From a virus, in IMG/VR virus record IMGVR_UViG_3300036800_000073, positions 31,584 to 95,583 of that record: a stretch of DNA of 64,000 bases; one strand, given 5' to 3'. Below the pieces are notes generated by a model. That model was not told where the DNA came from, searched no databases, and worked only from the letters and a program-made list of their open reading frames with translations. A program made the translations under genes and the position numbers. Of the stretch, positions 3,150 through 28,431 are shown piece after piece (the first letter of the stretch is position 1; each line of letters starts with the position of its first letter).

Positions 3150-3590
3150 TTAGGATTTGGCTTTGAGGATTGATAATGCCGTGGTATAACGGACGATTCG
3201 CTCGGCGTTCTCCATTGGCAAGGTCTGTGGTCGCATGGGGTCGAGGTTGTCTTGGAGATCGGCGATCTTCACCAGTCTGGCAGCAGCGTTGGTCGCAAGG
3301 CGAGGCAAATAGCTTTGCAGATAACTCTCGTTCTCGCGCCGGGTGAGCGCGTCCACTGCGGCGGCGATGGTGTCGCCGAATTCGGACGCTATATCCTCGA
3401 CGGTGATTGTGCTGTCTTCCACTACATCGTGCAGCAGGGCGATGGCGAATAACTCATCGTTGGCAACGCTCGGCTCACGGGCTATAACGCGCATGGCCAC
3501 GCGCAGGACATGGAGGATGTAGGGACGGCCGGCTTTATCAGTTTGGTCGGCATGAGCGTGGACGGCCATCTCCAATGCTTGTTCGATCAT
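3150..3590 (-). CDS. HD-domain small alarmone hydrolase (SpoT-HD/Mesh1-like)
   Basis: AH..Q.DKAGRPYILH, ALLHDVVED and VKIADLQDN match RelA/SpoT hydrolase motifs. Confidence 0.85.
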   Translation of the reverse strand: MIEQALEMAVHAHADQTDKAGRPYILHVLRVAMRVIAREPSVANDELFAIALLHDVVEDSTITVEDIASEFGDTIAAAVDALTRRENESYLQSYLPRLATNAAARLVKIADLQDNLDPMRPQTLPMENAERIVRYTTALSILKAKS

Positions 3591-5234: not shown

Positions 5235-5264
5235 ATAATACTACCTCACAATGATGTATGTCAA
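5235..5264 (-). promoter_or_regulatory. sigma70-type promoter for the leftward early operon
   Basis: Minus strand TTGACA-18 bp-TATTAT, upstream of a GAGGA RBS and ATG 5210. Confidence 0.6.
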
Positions 5265-10370: not shown

Positions 10371-10937
10371 ATGCCAGAACCGGCCAAGCGTCCCGTGGGG
10401 CGACCGAGCAAGAAATTCAATCAGCGACATGCTGAGCACATTCTGGATTGCTGGTCCTGTAGCGCATTCTCGCTGGAGCGTGTGTTGGAGGAATTAAGAC
10501 AAAAAGATGCCCGCTATCCAAGTCTTACCACCGTTTGGAGTTGGAAGCGTCGCTATCCAGAATTTGCGAAGGCTTACGCGCACGCGCGAATAGATCGCGC
10601 CGACTATATGGCGGATGGGGCGCTGGATGAGGCGCTGACCACGCGCAAAGGGATCTTCCGCAAGAGCAGCTTAAAGAGCGGCGTTAAGACCGATGAACTC
10701 CGCGAGGACGACAATGTTGCTCGCTCGCGATTGATTGCCGAAATGAAAATGCGCCGGGCCAGCCAGTTGAACCCGAAGGAATATCGGGAGCGGATGCCGG
10801 ATGCTCACGATGAAGGTCCCAACGAACAACTCGAAGCCCTGCAACGGGCGCTGCTCGACGGGCCGGTTGACACGCCGGAAGATGATCCGGGCAAAGCGAT
10901 CGAACCTGCGCCAGATGAGAAAGAGCCTGGGTCATGA
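10371..10937 (+). CDS. terminase small subunit
   Basis: GRPSK, HTH PSLTTVWSW...PEFAKAYAHAR; immediately upstream of TerL. Confidence 0.8.
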   Translation: MPEPAKRPVGRPSKKFNQRHAEHILDCWSCSAFSLERVLEELRQKDARYPSLTTVWSWKRRYPEFAKAYAHARIDRADYMADGALDEALTTRKGIFRKSSLKSGVKTDELREDDNVARSRLIAEMKMRRASQLNPKEYRERMPDAHDEGPNEQLEALQRALLDGPVDTPEDDPGKAIEPAPDEKEPGS

Positions 10938-12205
10938 GCGCGATCTTCAAACGCTTTGGCCGCAAGGCACAGCAGTTCATCACCAGGCATCCATCGAAAG
11001 ACAAGAAATACACTCTGCTCGAAGGCAGCGTTCGCAGCTCGAAGACGTTCGCGGTCGATGCCAAGCTCATCGCCCATCTATGTCTTTACAAGGTGGAAGG
11101 AAAGCGGGTAATCTGCGGCGCTACCAAGCAAACCGTTTATAAAAACATTCTGCTCGATCTGTTCGGCGTGGTGGGCCGAAAGAACTACACCTACAATGCC
11201 GCCAACGGCGAGCTGTGGCTGTTCGGAACGCAATGGTTCGTGATCGGCGCAAAAGACGAAGCGAGCTACAAGCAAATCCTGGGCATGACCATCGGCATCG
11301 CGATCTGCGATGAATGGACCGAGTTCCCGCGCAGCTTCACCATGCAGCTTTTCCTTCGCATGTCGCCGGAAGGATCGAGGCTGTATGCCACCACCAATCC
11401 CGGGACGCCGCAGCACTATCTTTTTACTGAAGTCATTCACGGCGAGGGATTCAAAAACGACATTGAGGTCATTCACTTCACGCTGGCCGACAATCCCAAT
11501 ATTGTGCCCGATGAAAAACAGCGCATCATCGCTTCGCAGACCGGGGTCTATTATCAGCGGTACATCCTTGGGCTATGGGTCGTTGCCGAGGGCGCTATCT
11601 ACAAGGATGCGTGGAACGACCGGCTGCTGTATAGCGAGCGGTCGAGGCCGGCCGGCTTGTATGGTGCGGGCGGGTTTGTCGATCATGTGATTGGCATCGA
11701 CTATGGGACAACCAATCCATGCGTGTTCCTCGAAGCCATTGATGATGGGGAACGCGCCTGGCTGGACCGCGAATACTTTTGGGATTCGGTCAAGGAAATG
11801 AAGCAAAAGACCGATTCAGAGTATGCCGACGATCTCGAAACATTCATTGCCGGCTCGCGCATCACGGGCCGCACTAATCCGCGGCTCGTGATTGATCCGA
11901 GCGCGGCCAGCTTCAAGTTGGAGTTGATCAAGCGCGGGCTTTGGGTCGTCGATGCCGATAACGATGTGGAGAATGGGATCCGCCGCGTGGCCAGTCTCAT
12001 GGCAATGAGGCGCTTGAGAGTGCACGAGGAATGCACCGAGTTCCGCCGCGAAGTCGGCATCTATGAGTGGGACAAAAAGAAAACGATGCTGGGCAAAGAG
12101 GAGCCGATCAAGGCTAACGATCACACCATGGACGACGTGCGCTATCTGCTCGCCGATCTGTTCCCGGACTGGCGCATGACTTCGGCGGTGGCGCTGGCCG
12201 CATAA
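10934..12205 (+). CDS. terminase large subunit (PBSX-like)
   Basis: EGSVRSSKT Walker A, AICDEW Walker B, TTNP coupling motif, GIDYG and DHTMDDVRY nuclease motifs. Confidence 0.95.
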   Translation: MSAIFKRFGRKAQQFITRHPSKDKKYTLLEGSVRSSKTFAVDAKLIAHLCLYKVEGKRVICGATKQTVYKNILLDLFGVVGRKNYTYNAANGELWLFGTQWFVIGAKDEASYKQILGMTIGIAICDEWTEFPRSFTMQLFLRMSPEGSRLYATTNPGTPQHYLFTEVIHGEGFKNDIEVIHFTLADNPNIVPDEKQRIIASQTGVYYQRYILGLWVVAEGAIYKDAWNDRLLYSERSRPAGLYGAGGFVDHVIGIDYGTTNPCVFLEAIDDGERAWLDREYFWDSVKEMKQKTDSEYADDLETFIAGSRITGRTNPRLVIDPSAASFKLELIKRGLWVVDADNDVENGIRRVASLMAMRRLRVHEECTEFRREVGIYEWDKKKTMLGKEEPIKANDHTMDDVRYLLADLFPDWRMTSAVALAA

Positions 12206-12223: not shown

Positions 12224-12826
12224 ATGGCGCGTTATCGCAACCAGCGGTTCTCAGATTTAGCTGACTTCGATCGCTGGCTAAGAGAGCGCGCGTCGATACG
12301 GATCGCCGCCGTATTCCCTTATCGAAACGAGATCGATGTTGTCTACGAGGTCGAATTCGTCGATCCCGTTGTAAAGTCGTTGGCACTTTTAACCGAGGGA
12401 GTTTCTATTCTCCGGTCGGTGCTGAGTTTCTTAAACAAAACCGACAACCGCATAGTGGGCGGTTCATTCCGCCAGATAGGAAATCCCATGCTCCCGATTC
12501 AGCCAGGCAATTCTCCGCAGTTTCAAGTCACCCCGACCTGGGCGACCCCTCCCGCCGATGGCGTGACCACCAAGCTGGCGCAAGCGTCTGTCACCAGCTC
12601 CGATCCCGTCAACTTTCCTGTCGCCTTGAATGGCGATGATCCGACCGGGCTCACGTTCACCGCTGCGATTCCGGCGACTGCTGTGCCCACGGGCGGAAAT
12701 GAAGCGATCACCGTGACCTGGTCCTATGAGAATGCGGACGGCACCACGGCCACGGTCACCGGCACCGTAACCGAGATTGGCATTGTGGACGATGTGACAG
12801 GCGGCACGTTCGCGCAGACGGTCTAG
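12224..12826 (+). CDS. hypothetical protein with Thr/Gly-rich beta (Ig-like) C-terminus, possibly structural
   Basis: Composition and position between TerL and portal; an internal start near 12488 is possible. Confidence 0.45.
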   Translation: MARYRNQRFSDLADFDRWLRERASIRIAAVFPYRNEIDVVYEVEFVDPVVKSLALLTEGVSILRSVLSFLNKTDNRIVGGSFRQIGNPMLPIQPGNSPQFQVTPTWATPPADGVTTKLAQASVTSSDPVNFPVALNGDDPTGLTFTAAIPATAVPTGGNEAITVTWSYENADGTTATVTGTVTEIGIVDDVTGGTFAQTV

Positions 12827-12950
12827 CGGCTTCCCACCACCAGAGGGTAGCAACCCTGAGTCTGCCGTGCGGGTGAAAGGCCCGCGCAATAATCATTATT
12901 CTTCTGAGGCTTATCTCGACCGGAGCCTGATCACAAAAGAGAGTGAGCCG

Positions 12951-14597
12951 ATGCCGAGACGCCGCGCAGCCAAGACGACGAAAAAACCCGGCGCGGTCAC
13001 AGAGTTTCCCAATGCGAACGAAGGGACGCTTCCGGAGATGGGACCGGTCGTAGGCGATTCCTACTCGAATCCCGCAGCGCGATTGGGTGTGGGCACGCCA
13101 AATCTTGCCGAGGCCGGTTACTATCCGCTCATTCGCCTCACTGAAGATTATCCGCTGATCCTGAGCCTCTATCGCAGCTCCTGGATTATCCGGCGCATCG
13201 TCGAGGCTGTGCCCGATGACATGCTGAAGTCGTTCCCGGCGCTGAATACCGAGATCAAGCCCGATCTCATCAAGCGGTTTGAAAAGATCGTGCGCAAGAC
13301 GGGAACACTCAAGAAAATCCGGCAAGCCGCCAAGTGGGGCCGCTTGTTTGGCGGCGCGGGAGCCGTGATCGTGATCGCCGGGCACCACGATCTAGCGGAG
13401 CCGCTCGACCTGGAGCAGGTGGAGCCCGGCTCATACAAGGGCTTGATCACGCTCGACCGCTGGAGCGGCATCATTCCGGGCCCGACGTTGAACGACGATA
13501 TCGAGGACACGGTAAACTTCGGCCTGCCTGCCAACTACAACTGCATCATGGATGCCGGTAGCACCGAAATCCACCATAGCCGCATTTTGCGCTTCATTGG
13601 ACGCGATCTGCCGCAATGGGAAAAACAAGTGGAATTGTATTGGGGAGAGTCCGAAGTCGAGGTCGTCTTCGACGAACTAAAAAAGCGCGACTACTCTTCT
13701 TGGAACATCGTGTCCCTGCTCACCCGAGCGCAGGTGATGTCGATTGAGGAGCCGCAACTTGCCGCGCTGATGTCGGGCATTACCGGAGGCCCGCAGGCGC
13801 ATCAGAACTTCGTTACCCGCATGGAGGCGATGAGCCAACTGCTCAACAGCCAAGGGCTCATGGTGCTGGGCAAGGATGGCAAGCTAAACCAGAACACCTA
13901 TAGCTTTGGCGGTATCTCCGATGTCTACCACGAATTCATGAAGGACTTGGCCGCGGCGTGCGGGATTCCCTATGAGATTCTATTCGGGCGGGAGTCGGGA
14001 TTGGGATCCAATGGCGAGGGTGGGCTGCAAATCTATTACGACATGCTGGAGCAAAAACGCACCAGCGACATAGACCCGGTGATCGATCAGCTCCTGCCAA
14101 TCATTGCCATGAGCGCGTTCGGCGAAGTGCCCGACGATCTCGATCATCATTGGCAACCCGTTCGCACCATGACAGAAAAGGAACGCGCCGAGTTGGCCAA
14201 GTCTACGGCCGATTCCATTGCCGTGTACTTCAATGCCGACCTGATGACCAAGCGCGAAGCCCGCATGGAAATTCAGCAGTCTTCGGTCGCAACAGGGATC
14301 GGCAGCAACTTGACGGATGAGGCCGTCGCAGCTACACCAGACAAATATGCGAGCGAACTTGGCATGGGCGAAATGCAAGGCGAACAAGGGGAGCAAGGGG
14401 AGCAGCCGGGGGAGAATGACGGCGAGGGAACCCCGGACCAAGATCAGCATCTCGAAGCCGGCCCGCAGCGCCCAAATCTCGGAGCGGGCAAAGTTGAAAA
14501 CCCATTCAGCCGCGAAGAGAGCAAAGACGACAATCCATTCAGCCGCGCGAACATGAAGGAACCGAAGGCGAGGCAACATGAAATGCCTGTTCGCTAA
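12951..14597 (+). CDS. portal protein (DUF1073-like)
   Basis: LYRSSWIIRRIVEAVPDDM, WGRLFGG, IHHSRILRF, GIPYEILFG; position after the terminase. Confidence 0.9.
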   Translation: MPRRRAAKTTKKPGAVTEFPNANEGTLPEMGPVVGDSYSNPAARLGVGTPNLAEAGYYPLIRLTEDYPLILSLYRSSWIIRRIVEAVPDDMLKSFPALNTEIKPDLIKRFEKIVRKTGTLKKIRQAAKWGRLFGGAGAVIVIAGHHDLAEPLDLEQVEPGSYKGLITLDRWSGIIPGPTLNDDIEDTVNFGLPANYNCIMDAGSTEIHHSRILRFIGRDLPQWEKQVELYWGESEVEVVFDELKKRDYSSWNIVSLLTRAQVMSIEEPQLAALMSGITGGPQAHQNFVTRMEAMSQLLNSQGLMVLGKDGKLNQNTYSFGGISDVYHEFMKDLAAACGIPYEILFGRESGLGSNGEGGLQIYYDMLEQKRTSDIDPVIDQLLPIIAMSAFGEVPDDLDHHWQPVRTMTEKERAELAKSTADSIAVYFNADLMTKREARMEIQQSSVATGIGSNLTDEAVAATPDKYASELGMGEMQGEQGEQGEQPGENDGEGTPDQDQHLEAGPQRPNLGAGKVENPFSREESKDDNPFSRANMKEPKARQHEMPVR

Positions 14598-15408
14598 CTC
14601 GCTCGATGTGATGCTGGATGGCTGGAGCGAGAGCGCGCATCCGCGCGTATCTAAAGGCAAAGGTGGCGGTCAGTTTACGTCCAAAGGTGGGAGCGGCTCT
14701 GCTCAAGCTGGTGCGGGATCGACCTCCCCCGCCGCTGCAAAGGCAGTTGCTGCTCCCGCAATTCCGCCAGAGATTCACGCGCATGTTGCCGACTATCAGC
14801 GATTGTTTCCTAAGACGTGGAAGCGGTTCAATGACTCCATGAGTTCGCTGGGGTCTGTCACGGGTCGCGTGAAGGCTGCAGATTCGCTGCAAGACAAGCT
14901 GGAGGGCCGCTACAAAGACAATGGCTGGGGTCTGGAGCACATCACCGACACTATCGGGATGCGCTGCACATCGGAAACGCTCGCAGGCGTATATGAGGGA
15001 GTCGCCGCCGTTCAGAAGCAATTCAAGGTGACTACCAATGAAAAAGGCGAGCCCGATGTAGACGACAAAATGATCAAGCCGCAAGGTTTCTACCGAGCGG
15101 TGCATATCATCGTCGATAGTCTGGACAAAACCGGCGTCAAGCGAGCCGAGATCCAGGTACGGACGATCCGCCAGTCCAACGTCGCCGATTGGGGACACGA
15201 CATCGCGTACAAAGGCAAGTTCGCCAAGCACGCCGAAGTGCGGGCCTATGCCAACGCTGTCGGCGACGCGAATTGGGAGTTGGACAACGGACGCGAAGCA
15301 AAAATGCCGGAGCCGCCCGAGATTCTGAAAAAGCATGGGCTGGAGTTCGATCCGGCGAAGACCTACTATTCGCATTGGCTGGCGAAAGAGAAGCCGGAGT
15401 TTCTGTGA
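14578..15408 (+). CDS. RelA/SpoT-type small alarmone synthetase with N-terminal FANSLD/HPR leader
   Basis: GRVK, DTIGMR, GFYRAVH, EIQVRT and HDIAYK synthetase motifs. Confidence 0.85.
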   Translation: MKCLFANSLDVMLDGWSESAHPRVSKGKGGGQFTSKGGSGSAQAGAGSTSPAAAKAVAAPAIPPEIHAHVADYQRLFPKTWKRFNDSMSSLGSVTGRVKAADSLQDKLEGRYKDNGWGLEHITDTIGMRCTSETLAGVYEGVAAVQKQFKVTTNEKGEPDVDDKMIKPQGFYRAVHIIVDSLDKTGVKRAEIQVRTIRQSNVADWGHDIAYKGKFAKHAEVRAYANAVGDANWELDNGREAKMPEPPEILKKHGLEFDPAKTYYSHWLAKEKPEFL

Positions 15409-15620
15409 TGGCCGACAAGTGGGATCGAAGCAACAAAGCGCCAAAATCGCTATTCCGCGTGATCGGCGAAGACTCGTTCGAGATGCCGCCAGCAAACTAT
15501 TGGGTAGGCGATTATAAGACCTACGAAGAGGCGCGCGCTACTGCTCGGAGCTGCGCCAAGCCCTTGAATCCGATGTGCGTTTACGACGACCTTGGGAAGC
15601 TGAAGTTCTTGATCGCATGA
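15408..15620 (+). CDS. small protein coupled to the SAS (candidate immunity protein)
   Basis: TGATG overlap with the SAS stop; 70 aa. Confidence 0.55.
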   Translation: MADKWDRSNKAPKSLFRVIGEDSFEMPPANYWVGDYKTYEEARATARSCAKPLNPMCVYDDLGKLKFLIA

Positions 15621-15785
15621 CGCCGCATGGTAATTTCATCGATGCTCATCTGGTCGCGAATCTGAAATCCGTGCTGATTTGCCGCCGCTGCCTGGCGCTG
15701 ATCTTTCCTGCCCACGCTCAAGCGCATAACGCATGGCACGAGCGGCTGCGCCGCGCTGTGGATGAGACGGAGATGTTGGAATCCA

Positions 15786-16253
15786 ATGAAGCCGACAGTC
15801 TTTGCCAATAGTCTTGATTACTGGTCGGCTTCGCAATGGGCGCTCGATGCGGGAGTGAATGAGACGCGGACGCTGCACGGGCTCACAATCATTATTGAGA
15901 ATCCGCAGTATTCCATGCGCGAAGGCTGGGGTTGGATGTCCGCGGCTCCGGCAGATTACGGCTATATAGCCGGCACGGTGGGAGCTGATGGCGATGAGGT
16001 TGATTGTTACGTCGGGCCAAACCCGCGCAGCCAAAACGTTTTCATTGTGGATCAAAACCGTCGAGGCGGCGCGGAGTTCGATGAACACAAAGTCATGCTC
16101 AATTATGATTCTGCGGCGGACGCCAAGCGGGATTATCTCGATGGCCATACCGAGGGAGCTGATATCTTTCGTTCCCTCACGCCAGTCTCGCTCCGGATGC
16201 TCAAGCTCTGGTTGCGACGCGGCGATATGACTAAGCCCTATAGCGAGGCGTGA
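15786..16253 (+). CDS. phage inorganic pyrophosphatase (InPase) domain protein with FANSLD leader
   Basis: IEN, YGYIAGTVGADGDEVDCYVG and FDEHKVML motifs. Confidence 0.8.
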   Translation: MKPTVFANSLDYWSASQWALDAGVNETRTLHGLTIIIENPQYSMREGWGWMSAAPADYGYIAGTVGADGDEVDCYVGPNPRSQNVFIVDQNRRGGAEFDEHKVMLNYDSAADAKRDYLDGHTEGADIFRSLTPVSLRMLKLWLRRGDMTKPYSEA

Positions 16254-16255
16254 CC

Positions 16256-17581
16256 ATGCGAGCGATCTTCGCCAACTCCTTGGACGTGATGCTCGATGGT
16301 TTTGAAGAATCGGAACATCCGCGAGCGGGCGAAGGTCCGGAGGGCGGACAGTTTGTCGCCAAGGGCGGCTCGGCTCCGGCTGCAAAACATCGCGTGCATA
16401 ACAAGTATGGCGAAGTGGGAGAGAAGTTCACCGCCACGATGGGCGCGAAACACCTGAAACCGGGCGATGTCTTAGCGGAGAATGAGCAAGGGCGGGCGCT
16501 GAAGGTTCTCAGCCTTGGACCAAAGACCTCCACGGGCGGGCAGTGGTACAACTTCGAAGTCGTTAATGCGGAAGCCGAACAGACCGGAGGCAAAGGATCG
16601 AAGTCGGCCCACCTGGTCGCTGCGCCAGCGGATCGCGAACAGTGGCCGGAGCACATCAAGAAGCTGGTGGTTCCGCCTGCATGGACCGGCGTTAAGATTG
16701 CGCAGAATCCCGATGCCGATTTGCTGGTGATCGGAAAAGACAAAGCCGGTCGCGATCAATATGTCTACTCGGAAAAGTTCTCGAAGTCGCAAGCGGCTTT
16801 GAAGTTCGCCCGCATGGAGGGACTGCGCAAGGATCGGCCACTCATCGAGGGCCAGCTCGCAGAGCTTCGCAAGAGCACTGAGCCAGGCAAACGCGATCAT
16901 GCCGACTGCGCCATCCTGGTTATGAAAATGGGCGTTCGCCCCGGCAGCGATACCGATACGAAGGCGAAAGTCAAAGCCTATGGAGCCACGACGCTTGAAG
17001 GCAAGCATGTCGTAGACGAAGGCGGAGCGGTGTTCTTGCGTTTCGTAGCCAAGAAAGGCATCTCGCTGAATTTGCCGGTCGAGGATAAGGCGCTGGCGGC
17101 GACGCTCACCAAGCGAGCGAAGAAAGCGGGCCCCGATGGGCGCATCTTCGGCGACGTTCGCGATGGCTCATTGCTCGACTTCGTGCATGGCCTGGATCAC
17201 GGCGGCTATAAGACGAAAGACTTTCGCACGGCGCTGGCGAATGACTTGGCGGCTCAAGCGATCAAAGGAGTCGCGAGGCCGGTAGACGCGAAGACATACA
17301 AGAAAGCGGTTCGTGAAGTGGCGCTCAAAGTATCGAGCAGGCTTGGCAATACGCCAACGGTTGCGCTCCAGTCCTACATCCATCCCGCTCTCTTCGCGCC
17401 GTGGCAGGGCGCAATGGCCGTAGTTCAGAAAAAGGGTGAGGCTCCGAAAGCCTCATCAGGTAAACCGGTAGAGAAGCTGTCCAGCAAGTCGCCGACTCCG
17501 GCCGCAGCCGGCCTGAATGCCGCGCAAAAAGCCTGGGCGACACGGCGAGCCGCGCGGGAGGCACAGAATGCCGCAGCCTGA
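16256..17581 (+). CDS. DNA topoisomerase IB with FANSLD/HPR leader
   Basis: PPAW, G.DKAGR.QY.Y, and catalytic pentad R (VRPG), K (AKKG), R (KDFRT), N (LGNT), Y (SYIHP). Confidence 0.9.
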   Translation: MRAIFANSLDVMLDGFEESEHPRAGEGPEGGQFVAKGGSAPAAKHRVHNKYGEVGEKFTATMGAKHLKPGDVLAENEQGRALKVLSLGPKTSTGGQWYNFEVVNAEAEQTGGKGSKSAHLVAAPADREQWPEHIKKLVVPPAWTGVKIAQNPDADLLVIGKDKAGRDQYVYSEKFSKSQAALKFARMEGLRKDRPLIEGQLAELRKSTEPGKRDHADCAILVMKMGVRPGSDTDTKAKVKAYGATTLEGKHVVDEGGAVFLRFVAKKGISLNLPVEDKALAATLTKRAKKAGPDGRIFGDVRDGSLLDFVHGLDHGGYKTKDFRTALANDLAAQAIKGVARPVDAKTYKKAVREVALKVSSRLGNTPTVALQSYIHPALFAPWQGAMAVVQKKGEAPKASSGKPVEKLSSKSPTPAAAGLNAAQKAWATRRAAREAQNAAA

Positions 17582-17741
17582 TTCCCTTCCCGATATTCAC
17601 TTTGGCAGCGCCGAGGCAGCATCGCTTGATTGGCGCAAATACAAGGATGATTCTCCCGATGACGATGAAGAGTTGGAGCACACGCCGCCGAGTATCGTCG
17701 CCATGCTCGGATTCGATCCCCGTGAGGCCGAAGACGGATGA
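17568..17741 (+). CDS. small acidic protein coupled to TopIB
   Basis: GGAGG RBS; 57 aa containing DDSPDDDEELEHTPPSIVAMLGFDP. Confidence 0.6.
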   Translation: MPQPDSLPDIHFGSAEAASLDWRKYKDDSPDDDEELEHTPPSIVAMLGFDPREAEDG

Positions 17742-17754
17742 TCGCGAGGTCCAC

Positions 17755-17952
17755 ATGTCTGTCGAGATTGATGCCAACACCATCACCATCAATGGGAAGC
17801 ATCTGGCGGTGAATGTGTTTTATGCCATCATGGACACCAGCTCAAGGCAACGCACCTTGTGGCAGTTCATCGAAAAGGATGGCGAGATTCAAGCTGTCGC
17901 TTATAGCGAGCGGCAAGTGATCTGGATCGATCATGGAGTCAATGAAGACTGA
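17755..17952 (+). CDS. hypothetical protein
   Basis: GAGG RBS; coupled to MuF. Confidence 0.5.
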   Translation: MSVEIDANTITINGKHLAVNVFYAIMDTSSRQRTLWQFIEKDGEIQAVAYSERQVIWIDHGVNED

Positions 17953-18815
17953 TGGCCGAGCCGTTTCATCCGCTGCGGCGCATCGAGATCGCATATCGCA
18001 AAGCTATCTTCGATGCACTGCGCCAAATGGTCGAGATCAGGATCGAGGACGGGAGCGAAGGCCAGTGGCTCGCGGATCTGATCGGGCTCGCGCACAGTAA
18101 AGAGCTGGCGCAGATCGGCGCAGCTATCGCGGCGCGGATGGTGCGCTGGGTCAATGTCGAGAATGCCAAGAGCTGGCGATATGCATCGCGACAGTCGCAA
18201 CGGTCGCAGATGCTTTACCGGCTACTCCAAGAGGAAATGTCGGGCACGGTCGGAACCCGCGTACAGCAAATCGTCCGCGAGAATGCCACACTGATCTCTT
18301 CGATTCCCTATACGGTCGCCGGAGAGCTGACCAACGAGATCATGGCGGCACAGCAGACCGGCGCAAGGCACGAAGTGATCGCGCGCATGATGCGCAACCG
18401 CTTTCCAATTCTGGCCCGTCATCGCGTGGCGCTGATCGCCCGCACGGAGACAAGTAAGGCAAGCACGGCACTGACGCGGGCCAGGTCGGAGGACCTGGGA
18501 CTAAGTTGGTTCGTGTGGAAGACCTCGCATGATGTCCGCGTGCGGCCCGCGCACGAGCACATGGAAGATGTAGTGTGTTCGTGGAACGATTTGCCGTCGC
18601 CCGAGGCATTGGTTCACATTCGCAGCAAGCTGGGGAAATACGCACCAGGAGACGCTCCAAATTGCCGCTGTTATCCGGCTCCGGTGTTGTCGCTAGAAGA
18701 CTTGTATCGCAATGGAAGTGAACGGCGGAAAGTCTACGCCAACGGAAACATTCAACGCATGACCCGCGCGCAGTTTGCGCGGCTGTCAGGAATCGAAGCG
18801 CGGGTCGCCGCATAG
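17952..18815 (+). CDS. MuF (SPP1 gp7-like) minor head protein, short form
   Basis: IARTET, W..S.D.RVRP.H, PG...NCRC. Confidence 0.9.
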   Translation: MAEPFHPLRRIEIAYRKAIFDALRQMVEIRIEDGSEGQWLADLIGLAHSKELAQIGAAIAARMVRWVNVENAKSWRYASRQSQRSQMLYRLLQEEMSGTVGTRVQQIVRENATLISSIPYTVAGELTNEIMAAQQTGARHEVIARMMRNRFPILARHRVALIARTETSKASTALTRARSEDLGLSWFVWKTSHDVRVRPAHEHMEDVVCSWNDLPSPEALVHIRSKLGKYAPGDAPNCRCYPAPVLSLEDLYRNGSERRKVYANGNIQRMTRAQFARLSGIEARVAA

Positions 18816-19797: not shown

Positions 19798-20172
19798 ATG
19801 CCGCTAACGAATAAGGGCGAATCGATCTTGCATTCGATGGAAGCCAGCTATCCATCCGAAGAGAAAGCCGAACAGGTGTTCTATGCCAGCCGCAATGCTG
19901 GCACGATAACCGGCGTGGATACCGCGCCAGAAGGAGTTACCGCCATGGAAGGTCATCGCATCGACGATCTTGGCAAGTCCACATTACACGCCGCCGACAG
20001 CGAGGGTCTTCGTGTCAAAAACCTGGGCGAGTCGGTTCTTCATGCTGACCAGCATGGTGCGGTCGATGCAGCCTTTCAGAGTCCGGGCGGCAACTCCGGG
20101 GCGCTGATCTCGCCCGCGCCGGGTTTGGGCATGTCAGCTTATCAAAGCCCCAAGGTTCCGGACGGCAACTAG
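19798..20172 (+). CDS. small head-region protein
   Basis: MPLT.KG..I...M...Y....KAEQVFYAS.N.GTITGVD, plus an internal repeat (LGKSTLHAAD/LGESVLHAD). Confidence 0.6.
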   Translation: MPLTNKGESILHSMEASYPSEEKAEQVFYASRNAGTITGVDTAPEGVTAMEGHRIDDLGKSTLHAADSEGLRVKNLGESVLHADQHGAVDAAFQSPGGNSGALISPAPGLGMSAYQSPKVPDGN

Positions 20173-20257
20173 AGACGACTGACTCGCTATGCCGTAGACG
20201 CCGATCGGGGCGGCGGATGACCGCGCTGGTACGCGGCTGCGCGGCGTAACCCAGGAG

Positions 20258-20695
20258 ATGGCGGGGCGAGAGATGACTGCAATTAGACATGAGGATGGAG
20301 ACGAGTGCCCACTTGATCTCGGCAGAAGGTTTGATGAATTACTCAGCGATCTAGCTGAGAAGCATAGGCAAAACCGTAACGACATCCACCAGCTCCGGAA
20401 TGAGCAGCAGAAACTGGCGCTAAAGCACTCAGATTTGGAGGGCATTCTGGCTCCAATCACTGGTAAGGATGGAAAGAAGGGTGTTTTGGACACTCTCATA
20501 GCAGCCGTGGATAGCTTGAGAAACACGGTGGAGTCACTGAACCTGTCGCGAGCCGAACAGGCTGGCATTGACAAGCAGGAGCAGAAGACCACGAAACGTG
20601 ACCGCTTCTTGATTGGTAGCGGGCTGGCGCTGATCGTGGCGCTGATTCCCTTCCTTGTGGTTCTTATCCAGCGACTATTTCCGGCCGGCAAGTAA
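20258..20695 (+). CDS. coiled-coil protein with C-terminal transmembrane helix (holin/XhlA-like?)
   Basis: Heptad region followed by FLIGSGLALIVALIPFLVVLI. Confidence 0.55.
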   Translation: MAGREMTAIRHEDGDECPLDLGRRFDELLSDLAEKHRQNRNDIHQLRNEQQKLALKHSDLEGILAPITGKDGKKGVLDTLIAAVDSLRNTVESLNLSRAEQAGIDKQEQKTTKRDRFLIGSGLALIVALIPFLVVLIQRLFPAGK

Positions 20696-20720
20696 ACCAT
20701 TCCCGAAGGAGACTTGATTT

Positions 20721-21299
20721 ATGGAGCACATCAATCCAGGCACTTCCGCATTCACGTCTCCCGAGATCGCGCCGTATCGCGCGACCGCTGCGGAGCCCTT
20801 TCGCCAAGAACAGGCGCAGGATGCTTTTCATTCCGCCTACGATGGAGCGCCGATCCCGGTCAGCTCTCACATGCCCATCTTTCGTACCGCGGCCATGGTG
20901 GACGACTTCAACGAGTCGATGACGGATGGAACCAGTGAGGGCGCAAAGAAGGCGTGGGAGTCGCGCGAGCGCGGCGCAACCGAACCGGTGACTGTCGCAA
21001 AGGGAACCGCGCCAGCACCGGGAACGAAGATTCGACCTCCGAGCGATACGGAAAGAGCGGAGGCGCGGGCGGAGTTCCCAGAGGCCGCAGCCAAAGCCGA
21101 TACGAAGCTCTCCGCGCACAAGTGGCCTACCGAAGAAGAAGAGACGGCCAAGCACGCGGAGTATCTCGATCCCAAGCCTGATCCAGACGATCCCGATCAG
21201 GAACACGCGGCGGCACACGCTGCATTCCTCAAGAAACAACGCGGCGAGGGACATAAGGAATACGCGGCGCAGGATGCGCTGCATCGCGGCAAAGAATAA
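20721..21299 (+). CDS. head-region hypothetical protein (DGTSEGA..AW motif)
   Basis: AGGAG RBS; shares motifs with the 21336 and 21564 ORFs. Confidence 0.65.
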   Translation: MEHINPGTSAFTSPEIAPYRATAAEPFRQEQAQDAFHSAYDGAPIPVSSHMPIFRTAAMVDDFNESMTDGTSEGAKKAWESRERGATEPVTVAKGTAPAPGTKIRPPSDTERAEARAEFPEAAAKADTKLSAHKWPTEEEETAKHAEYLDPKPDPDDPDQEHAAAHAAFLKKQRGEGHKEYAAQDALHRGKE

Positions 21300-21866: not shown

Positions 21867-23477
21867 ATGCCGAAATACTATTCGCTACTCCTCACCACGC
21901 ATATCTCGAAGACGCCGGAAGGTTATCTCATTTGCCGCGACGTTCCGATTTGCAGGAGCGGTTTTCAGTTATATCGCGGCAAAGAGCTGGTCAGGTTCCC
22001 CGGCTATCAGGCAAGTTGGGGCCTCGATCCGGAAACCATGTACAAGGTCCTCCGGCCGAAAGAAGAGGTCCTGCACCCGGACACGATTGCAAGTTTCAAC
22101 GGCAAAACGGTCGTCAACGAACATCCCGAAAAGGATGTTGTCTATATCGACAACGAAGGTGAACTGAATTGCGGTCACGCCCAGGATATCAAGCGTGGCG
22201 AAGACCTACCGCCTACCGAAGAGTTGCCCGAAGGCGCAGTGACGCTCGCTGCTGACTTGCATATCAAAGATCCGGAGTTGGTCGAAAAGATTTATCCCAA
22301 GGATGATCCGGCCAGCGGCGTACGCGACATCAGTTGCGGGTATTCCCTCAAGCTCAAGCGTTTGGCAGACGGAACGCTTGTCATGTATTGCATTCGCGGC
22401 AATCACATTGCCGTTGTAGAGAAAGGCAGAGCCGGAGAAATGATTGCGATTCAGGATTCGGTTCCCATCGAAACGATGGAAATCCTGGTTGCGATCGGAG
22501 ATGCGGCACCGCCCGAAATCAAGGAAAAGAGGACACCGATCATGAGTATTAGAGAGTTGATTTTCGGGCGCGGAGTCAAAGCAATCATGCCAGATGCCAG
22601 CCCGGATGAAGTGGCTTCCATGATGAAGGAAATGGAAGAGCCGGACAAGCGCGATGGAAAGCCAAAGCCTGCGAAGGACTCCATGGAAAAGCAGGACGAA
22701 CTCGCCGCCGAACACCCTCATCGTGTCGCCGCGCACGCTGCGCTTGACCGCTGTCTGGACGCGCGCGGAGCCGACGATCATATGGGCAAGGATGCATTTG
22801 GGAAGCCTGCCCATCTTGACTCCCTGCAACGGGAATTGGCGAAGTTCATTGAGAAAGAAGAGGGTGCCTCTGCCGCTGCGGAGACCGCGAAGGCGGAGCC
22901 TGCCAAGGCCGAGCCCGAGCCGGAGCCCAAGGCCGAGCCGGAAGTGGATGCCGGACCTGCGCCGGAGATCGAGGAGTTGAAAGAGGAAGAACCTCCCAAG
23001 GAAGAAGAAGTCGAGCCGGAACGCGAGCCCGAAGGCGATGCGGACGCGGACGCGGAGCCAAGCGATCCGGAAGATGAAGAAGAGAAGCCCGCCACCGACG
23101 CCGAAGAGGTCAAGGAGCAAGGCGAGAGCGTGCTCAAGCAGGCCAACGATTCGGTACGTAACTATCTCCGAGCAACCAAGCCTCTGGTCGCCAGTATCGT
23201 TGCCAAGCCCAGGTCGAAGTGGACAGTGCCGGAAGCGACCATGGTGGACAGCTACAACAAAGCCGTCCGCAATGTCAACGAGGCTGGCCCTGCATACCGC
23301 GTGTTGGCCAAGCCGAAGGTCCCTTCCAGGATTCCACCACTGGCTAAGGATGCCGAGGCAGCGGCGGCTGCAAACAAGCTCGAAGAGGACAAGATCGCAG
23401 CATTCTACGAAGGCGTGCCGTGGGCGAAGGGCAAAGCAGTTCACGACGCCTATCTCAAAACGAAGGGAAGTAAATAA
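21867..23477 (+). CDS. DUF2213-like prohead protease/scaffold
   Basis: TPEGYLIC.DVPI.RSG.Q.Y, EHP, ISCGY, NHIAVVEKGRAG; acidic scaffold-like C-terminus. Confidence 0.9.
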   Translation: MPKYYSLLLTTHISKTPEGYLICRDVPICRSGFQLYRGKELVRFPGYQASWGLDPETMYKVLRPKEEVLHPDTIASFNGKTVVNEHPEKDVVYIDNEGELNCGHAQDIKRGEDLPPTEELPEGAVTLAADLHIKDPELVEKIYPKDDPASGVRDISCGYSLKLKRLADGTLVMYCIRGNHIAVVEKGRAGEMIAIQDSVPIETMEILVAIGDAAPPEIKEKRTPIMSIRELIFGRGVKAIMPDASPDEVASMMKEMEEPDKRDGKPKPAKDSMEKQDELAAEHPHRVAAHAALDRCLDARGADDHMGKDAFGKPAHLDSLQRELAKFIEKEEGASAAAETAKAEPAKAEPEPEPKAEPEVDAGPAPEIEELKEEEPPKEEEVEPEREPEGDADADAEPSDPEDEEEKPATDAEEVKEQGESVLKQANDSVRNYLRATKPLVASIVAKPRSKWTVPEATMVDSYNKAVRNVNEAGPAYRVLAKPKVPSRIPPLAKDAEAAAAANKLEEDKIAAFYEGVPWAKGKAVHDAYLKTKGSK

Positions 23478-25465: not shown

Positions 25466-26197
25466 ATGTGGCCAGACATCAACGGCTTCTATGCGATGCT
25501 GTATGGAGCCGGAGGGATTGACCTCAGCGCATTGACCTGCTGGCAATTCGGTAATGCCACAGGTGTAGTATTTTCTGGCAATCCCCCTTATACCGCAACG
25601 GACTTCTTAGGCTTCTATCCGAAATTCTTCGGGCCTCCGACTTCGGTATCTGGTCTTACCATCACACAAGGATCGGCGGTGGTCAGCGGCTTCGCCAGCA
25701 TCACCGGCCTAGCCGTGGGACAGCTTGTGGTGAATCCGAATTCGATTCCCAAGGACTCCCTCATCCTGTCGATTGACAGCGCGCACAACGCTGTGACGCT
25801 GACCAATGAGGCGACCAATGATGGCACCATCCTGACTATCTACGAAGCGCCGCCGATGCCGCTCGTGGTGCTTCTCTGGTATGTGTATCTGGCTCAGGCG
25901 AACATCAGCTCGCGGTGGTTCGTGAATGTCTGGCCTATGGCCATTGCCTATTTCATCGCGCATTTCTGCACGCTCTGGATGCGTTCGGAAACAGGGCCGA
26001 ATACAACACCTTCGCAGATCGTTACATCAGGACTAGAGAAAGGAATGCTGGTCGGAAAATCTGCCGGCGACGTAAGCGCCAGCGTTCAATTTCTTGAAGG
26101 CTATGACGAGTGGGGAAGCCTCAGGGAGACGTCATATGGTCAGCAGCTAGCCACTCTAGCGCGGTCGATCAATTGTGGCCCCATTTGGGTCAGATGA
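25466..26197 (+). CDS. head-tail adaptor (DUF4054-like) with inserted beta domain
   Basis: F...YP.F, YFIAHFCTL, KSAGDVSAS, TSYGQQ. Confidence 0.75.
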   Translation: MWPDINGFYAMLYGAGGIDLSALTCWQFGNATGVVFSGNPPYTATDFLGFYPKFFGPPTSVSGLTITQGSAVVSGFASITGLAVGQLVVNPNSIPKDSLILSIDSAHNAVTLTNEATNDGTILTIYEAPPMPLVVLLWYVYLAQANISSRWFVNVWPMAIAYFIAHFCTLWMRSETGPNTTPSQIVTSGLEKGMLVGKSAGDVSASVQFLEGYDEWGSLRETSYGQQLATLARSINCGPIWVR

Positions 26198-26212
26198 GTG
26201 AAAGAATGAACC

Positions 26213-26934
26213 ATGATCGGCCTCATTTATCGCATTCTATTGCCAGCCACCGGCAAATCGTATATCGGCCAAACGCAACGAGAAGTGCAAATTAGATTTG
26301 AAGAGCATTGCCGCGATGGTAGATGCCCGATCAATCGAGCGTTGAAGAAATATGGGCGCGATGCGGCAACAGTGACGATTTTAGACACGGCGGAGTCCGT
26401 CGATGAACTGAATGCAAAAGAGATGTTATGGATCGGCCACTTCGATTCAGTGAAGCCCCACGGCTATAACTTGACCGCTGGTGGGGAAGGAAACAAAAAG
26501 GCTTCCGATGAGACTAGAAGAAAGATGTCGGATGCGGCAAAGATTAGAAACGCCCGCCCGGAAATAAAGGCGCAACAATCTAAAGCGATGAGCGCGCGCA
26601 TGGAAGGAAATCAGTTGCGTCGTGGTATGACCCTGACCGAGCAACACAGAATGGCCATATCTAAATGGGCTAGAGCGCGTCCTCCTTGTCTCTTGAGGCT
26701 AAGCAGAGAATCTCAAGAGCAAGACGAGGAAAGGCGCGGCCAGATTTGGCGGCGTTGAACAAGTCGCGCACCGGAATCGCGCTGACTCCTGAACACCGAA
26801 GCAAGCTATTACGCAAAGGTACATTCGAAAGTGAGTCGGATGATGGTGAGCGCAGAGTGGATGATCGGCGTCGAAAGCACGATAAGTGGGAGTCGCCACA
26901 TGGTCGATTGGGCATTGTTTTCGAACCAAGCTGA
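26213..26934 (+). pseudogene. GIY-YIG homing endonuclease with NUMOD3-like repeats, frameshifted near 26686
   Basis: GLIY...KSYIGQT, GYNLT.GGEG, SDETRRKMS; NUMOD3-like repeats continue in the -1 frame (SLEAKQRISRARRGK, LTPEHRSKL). Confidence 0.75.
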
Positions 26935-27040
26935 GGCCACTGCTCAGGCTCAGGCGGCGAGTGGGCCAAATAATAATTATGTTGTCGAACCGGTAACCGT
27001 GATAACTTACACTCCGCTGGAGAATAGCTGATGGGACGGG

Positions 27041-27484
27041 ATGATGCATTCCGATCTGAGGCAGCAAGCGCCATGGCCATCTGCGTTAGAAGGTCTGGTC
27101 AAGCGGCTGCGCTACAAAGATGGCTGGTGCTTCACGCTGGACACCATCGACCGTGGACAAGGCAGCGTGGGCGTGACCTTGGTGATCAACATCCGCGTGC
27201 CCGATAGTTATGAGAGCGGGCATAAGATCTGCGTGAACCACTATATGATCGTGCCCGCCGCCGCTTACGATCAGCGATCATGGACGCGCTGGCTGATTGA
27301 CCAGATACTGCTCGTCGAACAGCATGAAGCCTGCGAGTTCTTTTTGATCGGCGACGAACGGCCCTTTGCGCCAAATCATGGCCCAGGCCGTGATCCTTAT
27401 ACCATCATGGATCAGGGATTGCAGGTGGATGCGGAAACTACATTTCGCGGCGAACTATTCGGAAAAAGCGCCGTCAAGGATTGA
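27041..27484 (+). CDS. hypothetical phage protein
   Basis: Clean ORF; EQHEACEFF...RPFAPNH. Confidence 0.6.
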   Translation: MMHSDLRQQAPWPSALEGLVKRLRYKDGWCFTLDTIDRGQGSVGVTLVINIRVPDSYESGHKICVNHYMIVPAAAYDQRSWTRWLIDQILLVEQHEACEFFLIGDERPFAPNHGPGRDPYTIMDQGLQVDAETTFRGELFGKSAVKD

Positions 27485-27561
27485 GATGCGTCATCGATTC
27501 GATGAGGACGAACCCGATCCACGCTGGAATCAGCGCGACATCGCAGCGTGGCTGTTGAAGC

Positions 27562-28431
27562 ATGGGAGCACCGATGGGATTCACGGCCAGCTTCGAACGG
27601 ATAAGCCAAAGCCAGATTCTCAAGCAACGGCTCAACATGCTGGCCGCGAAAGCAGTGTATGTGGGGATTCCAGCATCGTCGGCCAATGATCGCAGCAAGA
27701 AGCTGCTGTCGATGGCCGGAACGTTGACCGGCAAGAGCACGACCAGCCGCAAACGGAAAGGCATTCTCGAACGCGCTGCAGACCGCAAGATCACCAATGC
27801 TGAGTTGCTCTTTATTTTCAGCAAAGGATCGCCGATCCGCAATCAGCCACCGCGCCCGGTTCTGGAGCCTGCCATCGAAGCCGATGGCAACCGCCAGGCT
27901 ATCGCGGCGGAGCTGGCGGCGGCGACCAAAGCTACGATGGATGGGGAGACGGGAGAAGCTACCCGGAGGCTCAAGCGGGCCGGTGTTGTGGGTGCGAATG
28001 CGGCGCGCGGATGGTTTACCGATGTCCGCAACGGTTGGGCGCAGAATGCTCCCTCCACCATTCGCGCAAAGCTGGAGAAGATGCGTAGCGGCAAGAAACA
28101 AAATCAGGCGTTCGCCATCCTCGACGCGGCGCAGACCGGCGCGAGGATGCCGCAGGTGGGACAGAATCCGCTTCTCGATTCGATCAATACGCCGGGCGTC
28201 GATACGGGCGCAATGCGAGCGGCCATTACCTGGGTCCTAAAAAATGACACCACCACAACAAACAGTGAACCCGCTCCTAAAAAAACCACCGGCCCGAGCA
28301 ATACCGGGGGAATGGACACCGGGGCCGCGCCTACTGCCCAAGCGGGGGCTAACGAGATTCTTGGAGAGGCTGTCGAGGGCATTGAAGCGGCTGGCGAGGG
28401 TTTAGCCGAAGGCGGCGCAATGTTGCTCTAA
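27562..28431 (+). CDS. neck/virion morphogenesis protein
   Basis: VYVGIP, P.RPVLEP, W..NAPSTI, DTG.MR.AITW. Confidence 0.75.
   Translation: MGAPMGFTASFERISQSQILKQRLNMLAAKAVYVGIPASSANDRSKKLLSMAGTLTGKSTTSRKRKGILERAADRKITNAELLFIFSKGSPIRNQPPRPVLEPAIEADGNRQAIAAELAAATKATMDGETGEATRRLKRAGVVGANAARGWFTDVRNGWAQNAPSTIRAKLEKMRSGKKQNQAFAILDAAQTGARMPQVGQNPLLDSINTPGVDTGAMRAAITWVLKNDTTTTNSEPAPKKTTGPSNTGGMDTGAAPTAQAGANEILGEAVEGIEAAGEGLAEGGAMLL

Follow-up and report, generated by a model that had tools for sequence, protein, structure and literature searches.

A RelP/RelQ-like alarmone synthetase with a conserved small partner in the head module of an uncultured phage that also encodes an Aph1-type hydrolase

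The window analyzed here is a 64,000-nucleotide stretch comprising bases 31584-95583 of a 95,583-bp IMG/VR virus record (IMGVR_UViG_3300036800_000073), the genome of an uncultured phage of ~96 kb that CheckV rates as 100% complete and whose ends are linear. Within its head module lies a gene for a small alarmone synthetase (SAS) of the RelA_SpoT fold, followed by two small open reading frames (ORFs), termed orfA and orfB, and by genes for a polyvalent-type inorganic pyrophosphatase (InPase), a topoisomerase IB (TopoIB), and a MuF-like head protein. A gene for an HD-domain hydrolase (HD) is found 11 kb away on the opposite strand (Table 1). Only a single RelA_SpoT gene and a single HD_4 gene are present in the whole record. 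We conclude that the phage carries an intact, probably capsid-borne SAS of a rare RelP/RelQ-like clade, together with an Aph1-type hydrolase that is controlled separately and probably early.

The SAS matched PF04607 (RelA_SpoT) with 53.8 bits against a cutoff of 27, and all five synthetase motifs are present (R97-x-K99...S103...K107; D124-x-x-G127-x-R129; Y172-R173-x-x-H176; E191-I-Q193-x-R195-T196; H207...Y211-K212). The motif residues, which include the Mg-binding Asp of syn2 and the catalytic Glu of syn4, occupy invariant or near-invariant columns in a 69-sequence family alignment, so that both fold and motifs identify a synthetase domain of the RelA/SpoT homologue (RSH) superfamily. A preliminary description of this DNA, made from the letters alone, had placed an SAS with all motifs intact in the head module, and the profile match, the motifs, and the position between the portal and MuF genes bear this out. 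The enzyme is very probably catalytically active. An AlphaFold2 (AF2) model with a predicted local distance difference test (pLDDT) score of 86.5 consists of a disordered leader from residue 1 to ~55, with residues 1-18 and 24-39 scoring below 50, and a confident catalytic domain spanning residues ~60-276. Foldseek searches with this model returned RelP and RelQ first (E ~1e-9; template modeling score, normalized to the target, up to 0.74), with CapRel lower and Tas1 absent. When a profile of the SAS family was compared with PDB sequences, RelP and RelQ were recovered at 1e-30 to 1e-26, long RSH proteins at ~1e-23, CapRel at 3e-16, FaRel2 at 7e-15, and Tas1 at 0.064. The predicted enzyme therefore resembles the (p)ppGpp-type RelP and RelQ, unlike the phage (p)ppApp toxin Apk2. 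Membership in the curated NCBIfam SAS families was rejected, as scores fell far below their cutoffs.

With regard to chemistry, the SAS might pyrophosphorylate tRNA 3'-CCA ends, like FaRel2, CapRel, and PhRel2, and not make a free alarmone. Its fold and motifs are common to the tRNA-modifying toxic SAS enzymes (toxSAS), the family profile picks up CapRel and FaRel2, and hydrolases of the small alarmone hydrolase (SAH) type can reportedly reverse the tRNA modification too. Set against this are the best sequence and structure matches, which are the nucleotide-making RelP and RelQ, and the Aph1 signature of the HD protein described below, which points to an adenosine nucleotide. The near-neutral catalytic domain (pI 7.5; K+R = D+E = 32) also lacks the basic character expected for tRNA binding, a weak argument. 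We regard tRNA modification as an unlikely activity of this enzyme.

The gene downstream is closely coupled to the synthetase, as the orfA start codon and the SAS stop codon have one base in common (TGATG) and a GGAG element is located 8 nt upstream. Homologues of orfA lie directly 3' of RelA_SpoT in every relative with readable DNA, namely, four further lineages (L003, L007, L008, and L011/L012). The ORF overlapping the SAS stop that had been noted earlier is thus real. In L003, where orfA is 43% identical, the order is portal, an HNH-like ORF (recognized by eye), SAS, orfA, orfB, and InPase. In L007 and L008, where the SAS is only ~27% identical, a Zeta-like gene precedes SAS and orfA, with an apparently intein-containing MuF gene at the head of the row and a prohead protease gene after it in L008; for these two contigs, hhalign reported a probability of 87.7% (E 3e-6). 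In L011/L012, RelA_SpoT is the last domain, behind a helicase C-terminal domain, ddrB-ParB, and Zeta, of a polyvalent chain at least 1989 aa long; it is followed by a 144-aa protein with an orfA-like N-terminus, after which comes another polyvalent protein, this one with InPase and SAM lyase. An orfA profile matched 12 clusters in a set of 5.8 billion proteins. For P0155, an orfA relative with 59% identity, and P0002, an SAS relative, the longest contig is reported as 3915 bp in both cases, and from this shared value only we infer that they reside on one contig.

An AF2 model of the orfA product (pLDDT 87) shows a beta-beta-alpha-beta-beta fold. The protein was assigned to no family in Pfam, PHROG, PADLOC, or NCBIfam, Foldseek gave no significant match in PDB or BFVD, and its neighbors in the ESM Atlas are unnamed phage proteins. 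On these comparisons, orfA is a new predicted small-protein family that tracks the SAS clade over deep divergence. Because the small gene stands right after a C-terminal toxin-like domain, tracks it, and is never fused to it, an immunity role may be proposed, and the position would suit a cognate immunity protein or antitoxin. We lean slightly toward direct inhibition of the SAS by the orfA product. The preliminary description had the small ORF protect the producing cell; its conserved partnership is that expected of cognate immunity, with protection itself a prediction. That description listed a single small ORF downstream of the SAS and overlooked the second coupled one, orfB, whose start overlaps the orfA stop (ATGA) and whose end overlaps the InPase start. 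A homologue of orfB was detected at the same position in L003 (2420-2734; BLASTP E 8e-7), while none was present in L007, L008, or L011; the encoded protein is possibly zinc binding.

Among 1.84 billion cluster representatives, phmmer identified 269 SAS relatives, and the clade is considered rare because only one of them exceeds 50% identity. By tblastn against phages, only two weak matches to the SAS were obtained (~27% identity), and single-protein scans and one profile scan of viral and genome contigs found no relatives. More than half of the best 153 of the 269 relatives (81) are longer than 300 aa, and in most of the long relatives listed the SAS domain is at the C-terminal end. Fusion partners in the relatives scanned were InPase, a DRAT-like ADP-ribosyltransferase domain, a 2H phosphoesterase, and a methyltransferase. 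Among the same best 153, InPase shares a chain with the SAS domain in 7, and no chain joins that domain to orfA or HD. These long relatives are phage-type polyvalent proteins as portrayed by Iyer et al. (2017; PMC5512222), according to whom RelA/SpoT and InPase are phage-only modules predicted to be packaged in the virion and injected. The order SAS-orfA-InPase is retained in L003 and L011, and InPase is likely a functional companion of the SAS.

The disordered leader of the SAS contains the motif FANSLD, followed by ES-HPR-x5-G-GGQF-x2-KGG. Translating the genome in all six frames gives exactly three copies of FANSLD, one at the N-terminus of each of SAS, InPase, and TopoIB. A leader alignment revealed that ES-x-HPR...G-GGQF-x2-KGG is common to SAS and TopoIB; InPase has FANSLD and lacks the HPR/GGQF part, and orfA is without a leader. 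Motifs of the form HPR-x(3-8)-G-x-F stand at the head of many solo SAS relatives and between domains in long ones, and P0114 combines a TopoIB homologue with two HPR-type tags. The same KGKGGGQF element is borne by a 399-aa P-loop protein of L004 that is Zeta-toxin-like by eye. A capsid-loaded, injected SAS would fit these observations because the relatives are modules of polyvalent proteins and the N-terminal tag is disordered. We favor, with modest confidence, capsid cargo as the predicted fate of the SAS, in keeping with the injected enzyme of the preliminary description.

Another possibility is that the SAS is made late, stays unpackaged, and acts in the producing cell, for example to shut down host synthesis or to retune nucleotide pools with InPase, in which case orfA (and orfB) would be regulatory or activating. 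The late-operon site and coupling would be compatible with this, the recurrent fusion of SAS with InPase is suggestive of a shared activity in nucleotide metabolism, and orfA has no recognizable antitoxin fold. A disordered tag common to three unrelated enzymes is ill explained by metabolism, however, and relatives are fused into polyvalent proteins with Zeta-toxin, ParB-nuclease, and helicase modules and lie beside MuF or head-protease genes. In addition, immunity genes classically take the form seen here, a small gene that stands immediately behind a toxin-like C-terminal domain without ever being fused with it (PMC10083569). An unpackaged, metabolic SAS accordingly appears unlikely to us.

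Several further observations were made on the tags and neighbors in related contigs. In L008 and L007, the orfA homologues open with SFADSL or SFEQSL, loosely like FANSLD. In several relatives (L004:38-1237; L007:6192-8027; L008:7650-9473; L011:7-5976), Zeta-toxin-like kinases with an HPR/GGQF-type tag either directly precede the SAS or form an upstream part of the same fusion protein, which suggests a recurring Zeta-SAS effector pairing. The MuF gene of the related viral contig L008 (4902-6770) is apparently interrupted by an intein, as it matches Hint and intein-splicing domains.

In the window, the head module follows the order TerS-TerL-ORF-portal-SAS-orfA-orfB-InPase-TopoIB-x-MuF, where gene starts overlap or abut from portal to TopoIB. 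Promoter- and terminator-like sites between 12 and 18 kb were no commoner than in shuffled sequence, and no convincing internal one was seen. The SAS is consequently not in an autonomous operon, since its start is inside the portal gene and it is coupled through to TopoIB. No DNA similarity of positions 12800-17600 to GenBank phages was detected. This arrangement bears on whether SAS and orfA could be a classical toxSAS toxin-antitoxin pair, that is, an abortive-infection moron acting in the carrier cell for superinfection exclusion and not as virion cargo. The bicistronic overlap with a small downstream ORF is indeed as in toxSAS toxin-antitoxin systems (PMC7229694); a weak PADLOC match to the candidate defense protein PDC-S33 (E 1e-7) and the profile similarity to CapRel and FaRel2 given above point the same way. 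Nevertheless, the SAS is embedded in a late head operon without a promoter of its own, its leader is common to InPase and TopoIB, related domains form the C-terminal modules of polyvalent proteins associated with the head, and RelP/RelQ are closer to it than CapRel or FaRel2 are. Moreover, no tyrosine integrase was detectable in the genome. We consider a moron of this kind improbable.

The HD protein was compared with characterized hydrolases. Its best PDB match, over residues 1-143, was 7SMG, a "(p)ppApp hydrolase" (Aph1), with an E value of 9.5e-21; PaSAH followed at 8e-13, and Rel, SpoT, and MESH1 at 1e-11 or weaker, giving Aph1 a lead of eight orders of magnitude. The specificity of Aph1 for (p)ppApp has been attributed to D24, R96, D116, R119, K133, and Y134, and joint mutation of D24 and R119 lets Aph1 hydrolyze ppGpp (PMC10083569). 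In a HMMER alignment, the corresponding HD residues are D18, R97, D116, R119, R133, and Y134, five of the six being identical and K133 being replaced by Arg, so that similarity and specificity signature both place the protein in the Aph1 family. Its closest phage homologues are the Aph1 proteins of Mannheimia, Pasteurella, and pneumococcal Apk2 phages (42-44% identity), a value within the range of 43-57% seen among these proteins themselves, and it also matched phrog_990 (E 5.7e-47). Hydrolysis of (p)ppApp is its probable activity on the strength of this signature. The preliminary description had called it a SpoT-type HD hydrolase; the gene and its distance from the SAS stand, and the protein is more specifically Aph1-like and (p)ppApp-type rather than generic SpoT-type.

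HD is the fourth gene of a leftward operon consisting of a ParB-like gene, a 67-aa ORF, a 159-aa ORF, HD, and genes for a ProQ-C-like protein, a SpoU methylase, a HerA-like ATPase, and others. A sigma-70-like promoter precedes this operon, called by consensus match; promoter-like sites in the divergent region do not exceed the number expected by chance, so that the argument rests on how strong this one is and where it lies. The site would suit early transcription by the RNA polymerase of the host, in line with the early operon of the preliminary description. The SpoU-family protein of this operon is a 2'-O-methyltransferase (923-1516, - strand). In the Pseudomonas phage phiPsa397 (L013; NC_073683.1 16090-19506), an Aph1-like HD gene is found in a row of DNA ligase, hypothetical, HD, Nudix, hypothetical, and RNA ligase genes, which hints at a counter-defense cluster for nucleotide signals or RNA repair.

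Table 1. Genes and sequence features of the head module and of the hydrolase operon, in window coordinates
Feature	Position	Strand	Remarks
HD hydrolase, Aph1 family	3150-3590	-	146 aa; PF13328 HD_4 8.6e-11, PF01966 6e-6
Sigma-70-like promoter TTGACA-18-TATTAT	5235-5264	-	11/12; in 83-bp divergent intergenic region, heads HD operon
TerS	10371-10937	+	Upstream of portal
TerL	10934-12205	+	Upstream of portal
ORF without assigned family	12224-12826	+	Between TerL and portal
Portal protein	12867-14597	+	PF06381 Phage_portal_3, E 1e-88; last 20 nt overlap SAS start
SAS (RelA_SpoT fold)	14578-15408	+	276 aa; PF04607, E 2.7e-14
FANSLD sites	14590-14607, 15801-15818, 16268-16285	+	SAS, InPase, TopoIB
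orfA	15408-15620	+	70 aa; conserved small partner of SAS clade
orfB	15617-15811	+	64 aa; CxxC...HxxxH motif
InPase, polyvalent-type inorganic pyrophosphatase	15789-16253	+	PF18823, E 8e-33; begins FANSLD
Topoisomerase IB (TopoIB)	16250-17581	+	PF01028 + PF21338; FANSLD + HPR/GGQF leader
ORF without assigned family	17602-17952	+	Between TopoIB and MuF
MuF-like head protein	17952-18815	+	PF04233, E 2.8e-14; separate gene, no toxin domain
DUF2213 protein	21867-23477	+	Further downstream of MuF

Other genes of the same virus record, outside the window, include one for a phage-encoded Ro60/TROVE and vWA protein (G000 26145-27587; L006:8145-9587, + strand). Genes for Ku and an ATP-dependent DNA ligase with WGR and ligase domains, a phage end-joining pair, lie at G000 12762-13940 (L005, - strand) and 19882-21189 (L006:1882-3189, - strand). 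The arm with Ku and ligase also holds a C5 DNA methylase, a GT87 glycosyltransferase, and a radical SAM gene.

The design that we favor joins these elements into one scheme, to which we assign a rough probability of 0.4: a late cargo SAS, immunity through orfA, and removal of the product by the Aph1-type HD. The SAS would be a late-expressed effector of the polyvalent-protein kind, split here into free-standing genes for SAS, InPase, and TopoIB, and its disordered leader would mark it for capsid loading and delivery together with the phage DNA. Once in the new host, the enzyme would use ATP to make a 3'-pyrophosphorylated purine nucleotide, (p)ppApp and/or (p)ppGpp, and so cause a brief metabolic arrest. 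The leaderless orfA product, translationally coupled to the SAS, would bind and block it in the producing cell as cognate immunity. The Aph1-type HD, expressed by host RNA polymerase from the strong sigma-70-like promoter of its separate operon, would remove the adenosine alarmone and end the pulse, adding a second, enzymatic layer of protection. The timed switch of the preliminary description is plausible, its toxicity, product, packaging, and timing being predictions. What the sequences themselves establish are the folds and motifs of the enzymes, the order and coupling of the genes, the conserved pairing of SAS with orfA, the fusions of SAS with InPase, and the Aph1 signature. In a more detailed form of this scheme, the tag-addressed cargo would be independent of MuF, the RelP/RelQ-like SAS would make (p)ppApp, orfA would silence it late, early Aph1 would end the pulse, and InPase would process the product or by-product, SAS-orfA-InPase being a conserved three-part effector unit; that all of these hold together seems unlikely.

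The two halves of the scheme differ in their support. The link between SAS and HD is the weakest point, since the SAS-orfA half has comparative support and the SAS-HD half has none, and several results weigh against the scheme as a whole. No HD gene was found near the SAS in any SAS relative or anywhere in four partial related records (16-59% complete), so that the two enzymes, whose co-occurrence in related phages had been proposed earlier as a check, were not seen together in any relative of this set. Similar HD genes were present in 298 GenBank phage records, many from large virulent myoviruses, and in five complete phages of different groups HD is situated among early or replication genes without a canonical RelA_SpoT (PF04607), a null that covers canonical SAS only, as PF04607 also misses the true Apk2 of the control phage. 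The syn2, syn3, and syn4 motifs are of the guanosine, RSH type and the HD signature is of the adenosine type, and the hydrolase may thus mismatch the SAS product. As to orfA, its likenesses to T4 Dmd (Z 5.8), the CapRel C-terminal domain (Z 4.5), and AcrIF9 fell below the meaningful Z level of VIA-align and were not used.

The chemical mismatch is not decisive. Swaps of Apk2 motifs failed to change specificity (PMC12226406), and because Apk2 specificity was left unchanged by them, sequence cannot settle the SAS product. We consider it possible, if somewhat doubtful, that HD acts on this product. At nearly even odds, HD instead operates independently of the SAS, as an early anti-defense or housekeeping enzyme that destroys alarmones made by the host, such as (p)ppApp or the tRNA pyrophosphate produced by host toxSAS abortive-infection systems or by rival toxins, leaving the SAS to orfA alone. 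The GenBank distribution of similar HD genes, their setting in the five complete phages, and the four partial SAS-clade relatives without HD are all in line with independence, and most Aph1 homologues are not adjacent to a synthetase (PMC10083569). Stand-alone phage SAHs neutralize all tested toxSAS enzymes and have been proposed to serve counter-defense (Jimmy et al., PMC7229694). What connects HD with the SAS is that its nearest phage homologues are Aph1 immunity genes of Apk2 phages and that the genome has exactly one synthetase and one hydrolase; the failure of PF04607 to detect Apk2 also restricts the meaning of "no SAS" elsewhere.

The role of head-borne RSH toxins of phages during infection is a standing question in the Apk2 and MuF papers. 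The present locus divides synthetase, binding partner, and product hydrolase among differently placed genes, which suggests a temporal logic, and with it phage head cargo gains a second synthetase clade, distinct from Apk. The orfA family is a candidate source of inhibitors of RelP/RelQ-like enzymes, and the recurrent coupling of SAS and InPase is a further addition. If a canonical-motif SAS does make (p)ppApp, motif-based prediction of products will need revision.

Compared with polyvalent proteins, as set out by Iyer, Burroughs, Anand, de Souza, and Aravind (2017; PMC5512222), the locus has the same RelA/SpoT and InPase repertoire, with Zeta kinase and ddrB-ParB in SAS relatives, as well as the head-gene context and predicted virion delivery, and the sequence relatives of the SAS are such proteins. 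Here, too, the effector domains RelA_SpoT, InPase, and TopoIB stand beside head and packaging genes, between portal and MuF. In contrast to a polypeptide with two or more domains, each of the three enzymes is a separate gene with its own ORF, start, and N-terminal leader. A conserved small gene after RelA/SpoT and a link to Aph1 are not among the descriptions in the passages of that paper considered here.

Stand-alone phage SAHs, such as PbcSpo of Salmonella phage PVP-SE1 and PaSpo of SSU5 (PMC7229694), resemble the window HD in being single-domain HD proteins encoded in an early or auxiliary region, and relatives in the rV5-like phages KB57, GAP31, and SSE121 are 36-39% identical to it. They differ in that the window phage also encodes its own synthetase and that its HD carries the Aph1 (p)ppApp signature. 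The three-gene FaRel toxSAS, with an SAH antitoxin and a small antitoxin (Jimmy et al. 2020; PMC7229694), likewise combines SAS, small partner, and hydrolase, and the bicistronic overlap of SAS and small gene is a further shared feature. An SAS with a conserved small adjacent gene, as in toxSAS, was found in the window, L003, L007, L008, and L011/L012. Unlike toxSAS, the window SAS is in a late structural operon with an unlinked hydrolase, resembles RelP/RelQ more closely than any toxSAS of solved structure, and has a partner of a new family.

The closest published phage system is Apk2-IapK-Aph1 (Ahmad et al. 2023, PMC10083569; Paulet et al. 2025, PMC12226406), in which Aph1 is a proven enzymatic immunity protein (PMC10083569). 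An example is gp04-gp06 of Mannheimia phage vB_MhS_1152AP2, where the order is portal, MuF::Apk2 (553 aa), the 72-aa IapK, and Aph1. Shared with the window are the head-module site just after portal, the succession of an RSH-fold 3'-pyrophosphokinase and a ~70-aa gene, and an Aph1-family HD in the same phage. The window SAS, however, is not fused to MuF, and D-x-x-G-x-R, Y-R-x-x-H, and E-I-Q-V-R-T replace the Apk2 motifs RYT, G-x-N, and YH; at the sites of RYT, G-I-N, and YH of Mannheimia Apk2, the SAS has G-M-R, A-V-H, and V-R. BLASTP found no similarity between SAS and Apk2. The SAS was accordingly rejected as an Apk2, in view of its separate MuF gene, RSH-type motifs, and the Tas1 score given above. 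Likewise, orfA was rejected as an IapK, as hhalign with the Mannheimia protein gave a probability of 0.1%; Tis1 was absent from the orfA structural search results, weak evidence against IapK/Tis1 kinship. The window hydrolase is, in addition, in a differently promoted operon on the other strand, and the genome has no integrase that could be found. Overall, a phage toxin with two immunities is an already published design, and the window does not represent a new kind of system; it parallels Apk2-IapK-Aph1 and FaRel-type systems with an unlinked hydrolase and with two of the three proteins drawn from other families.

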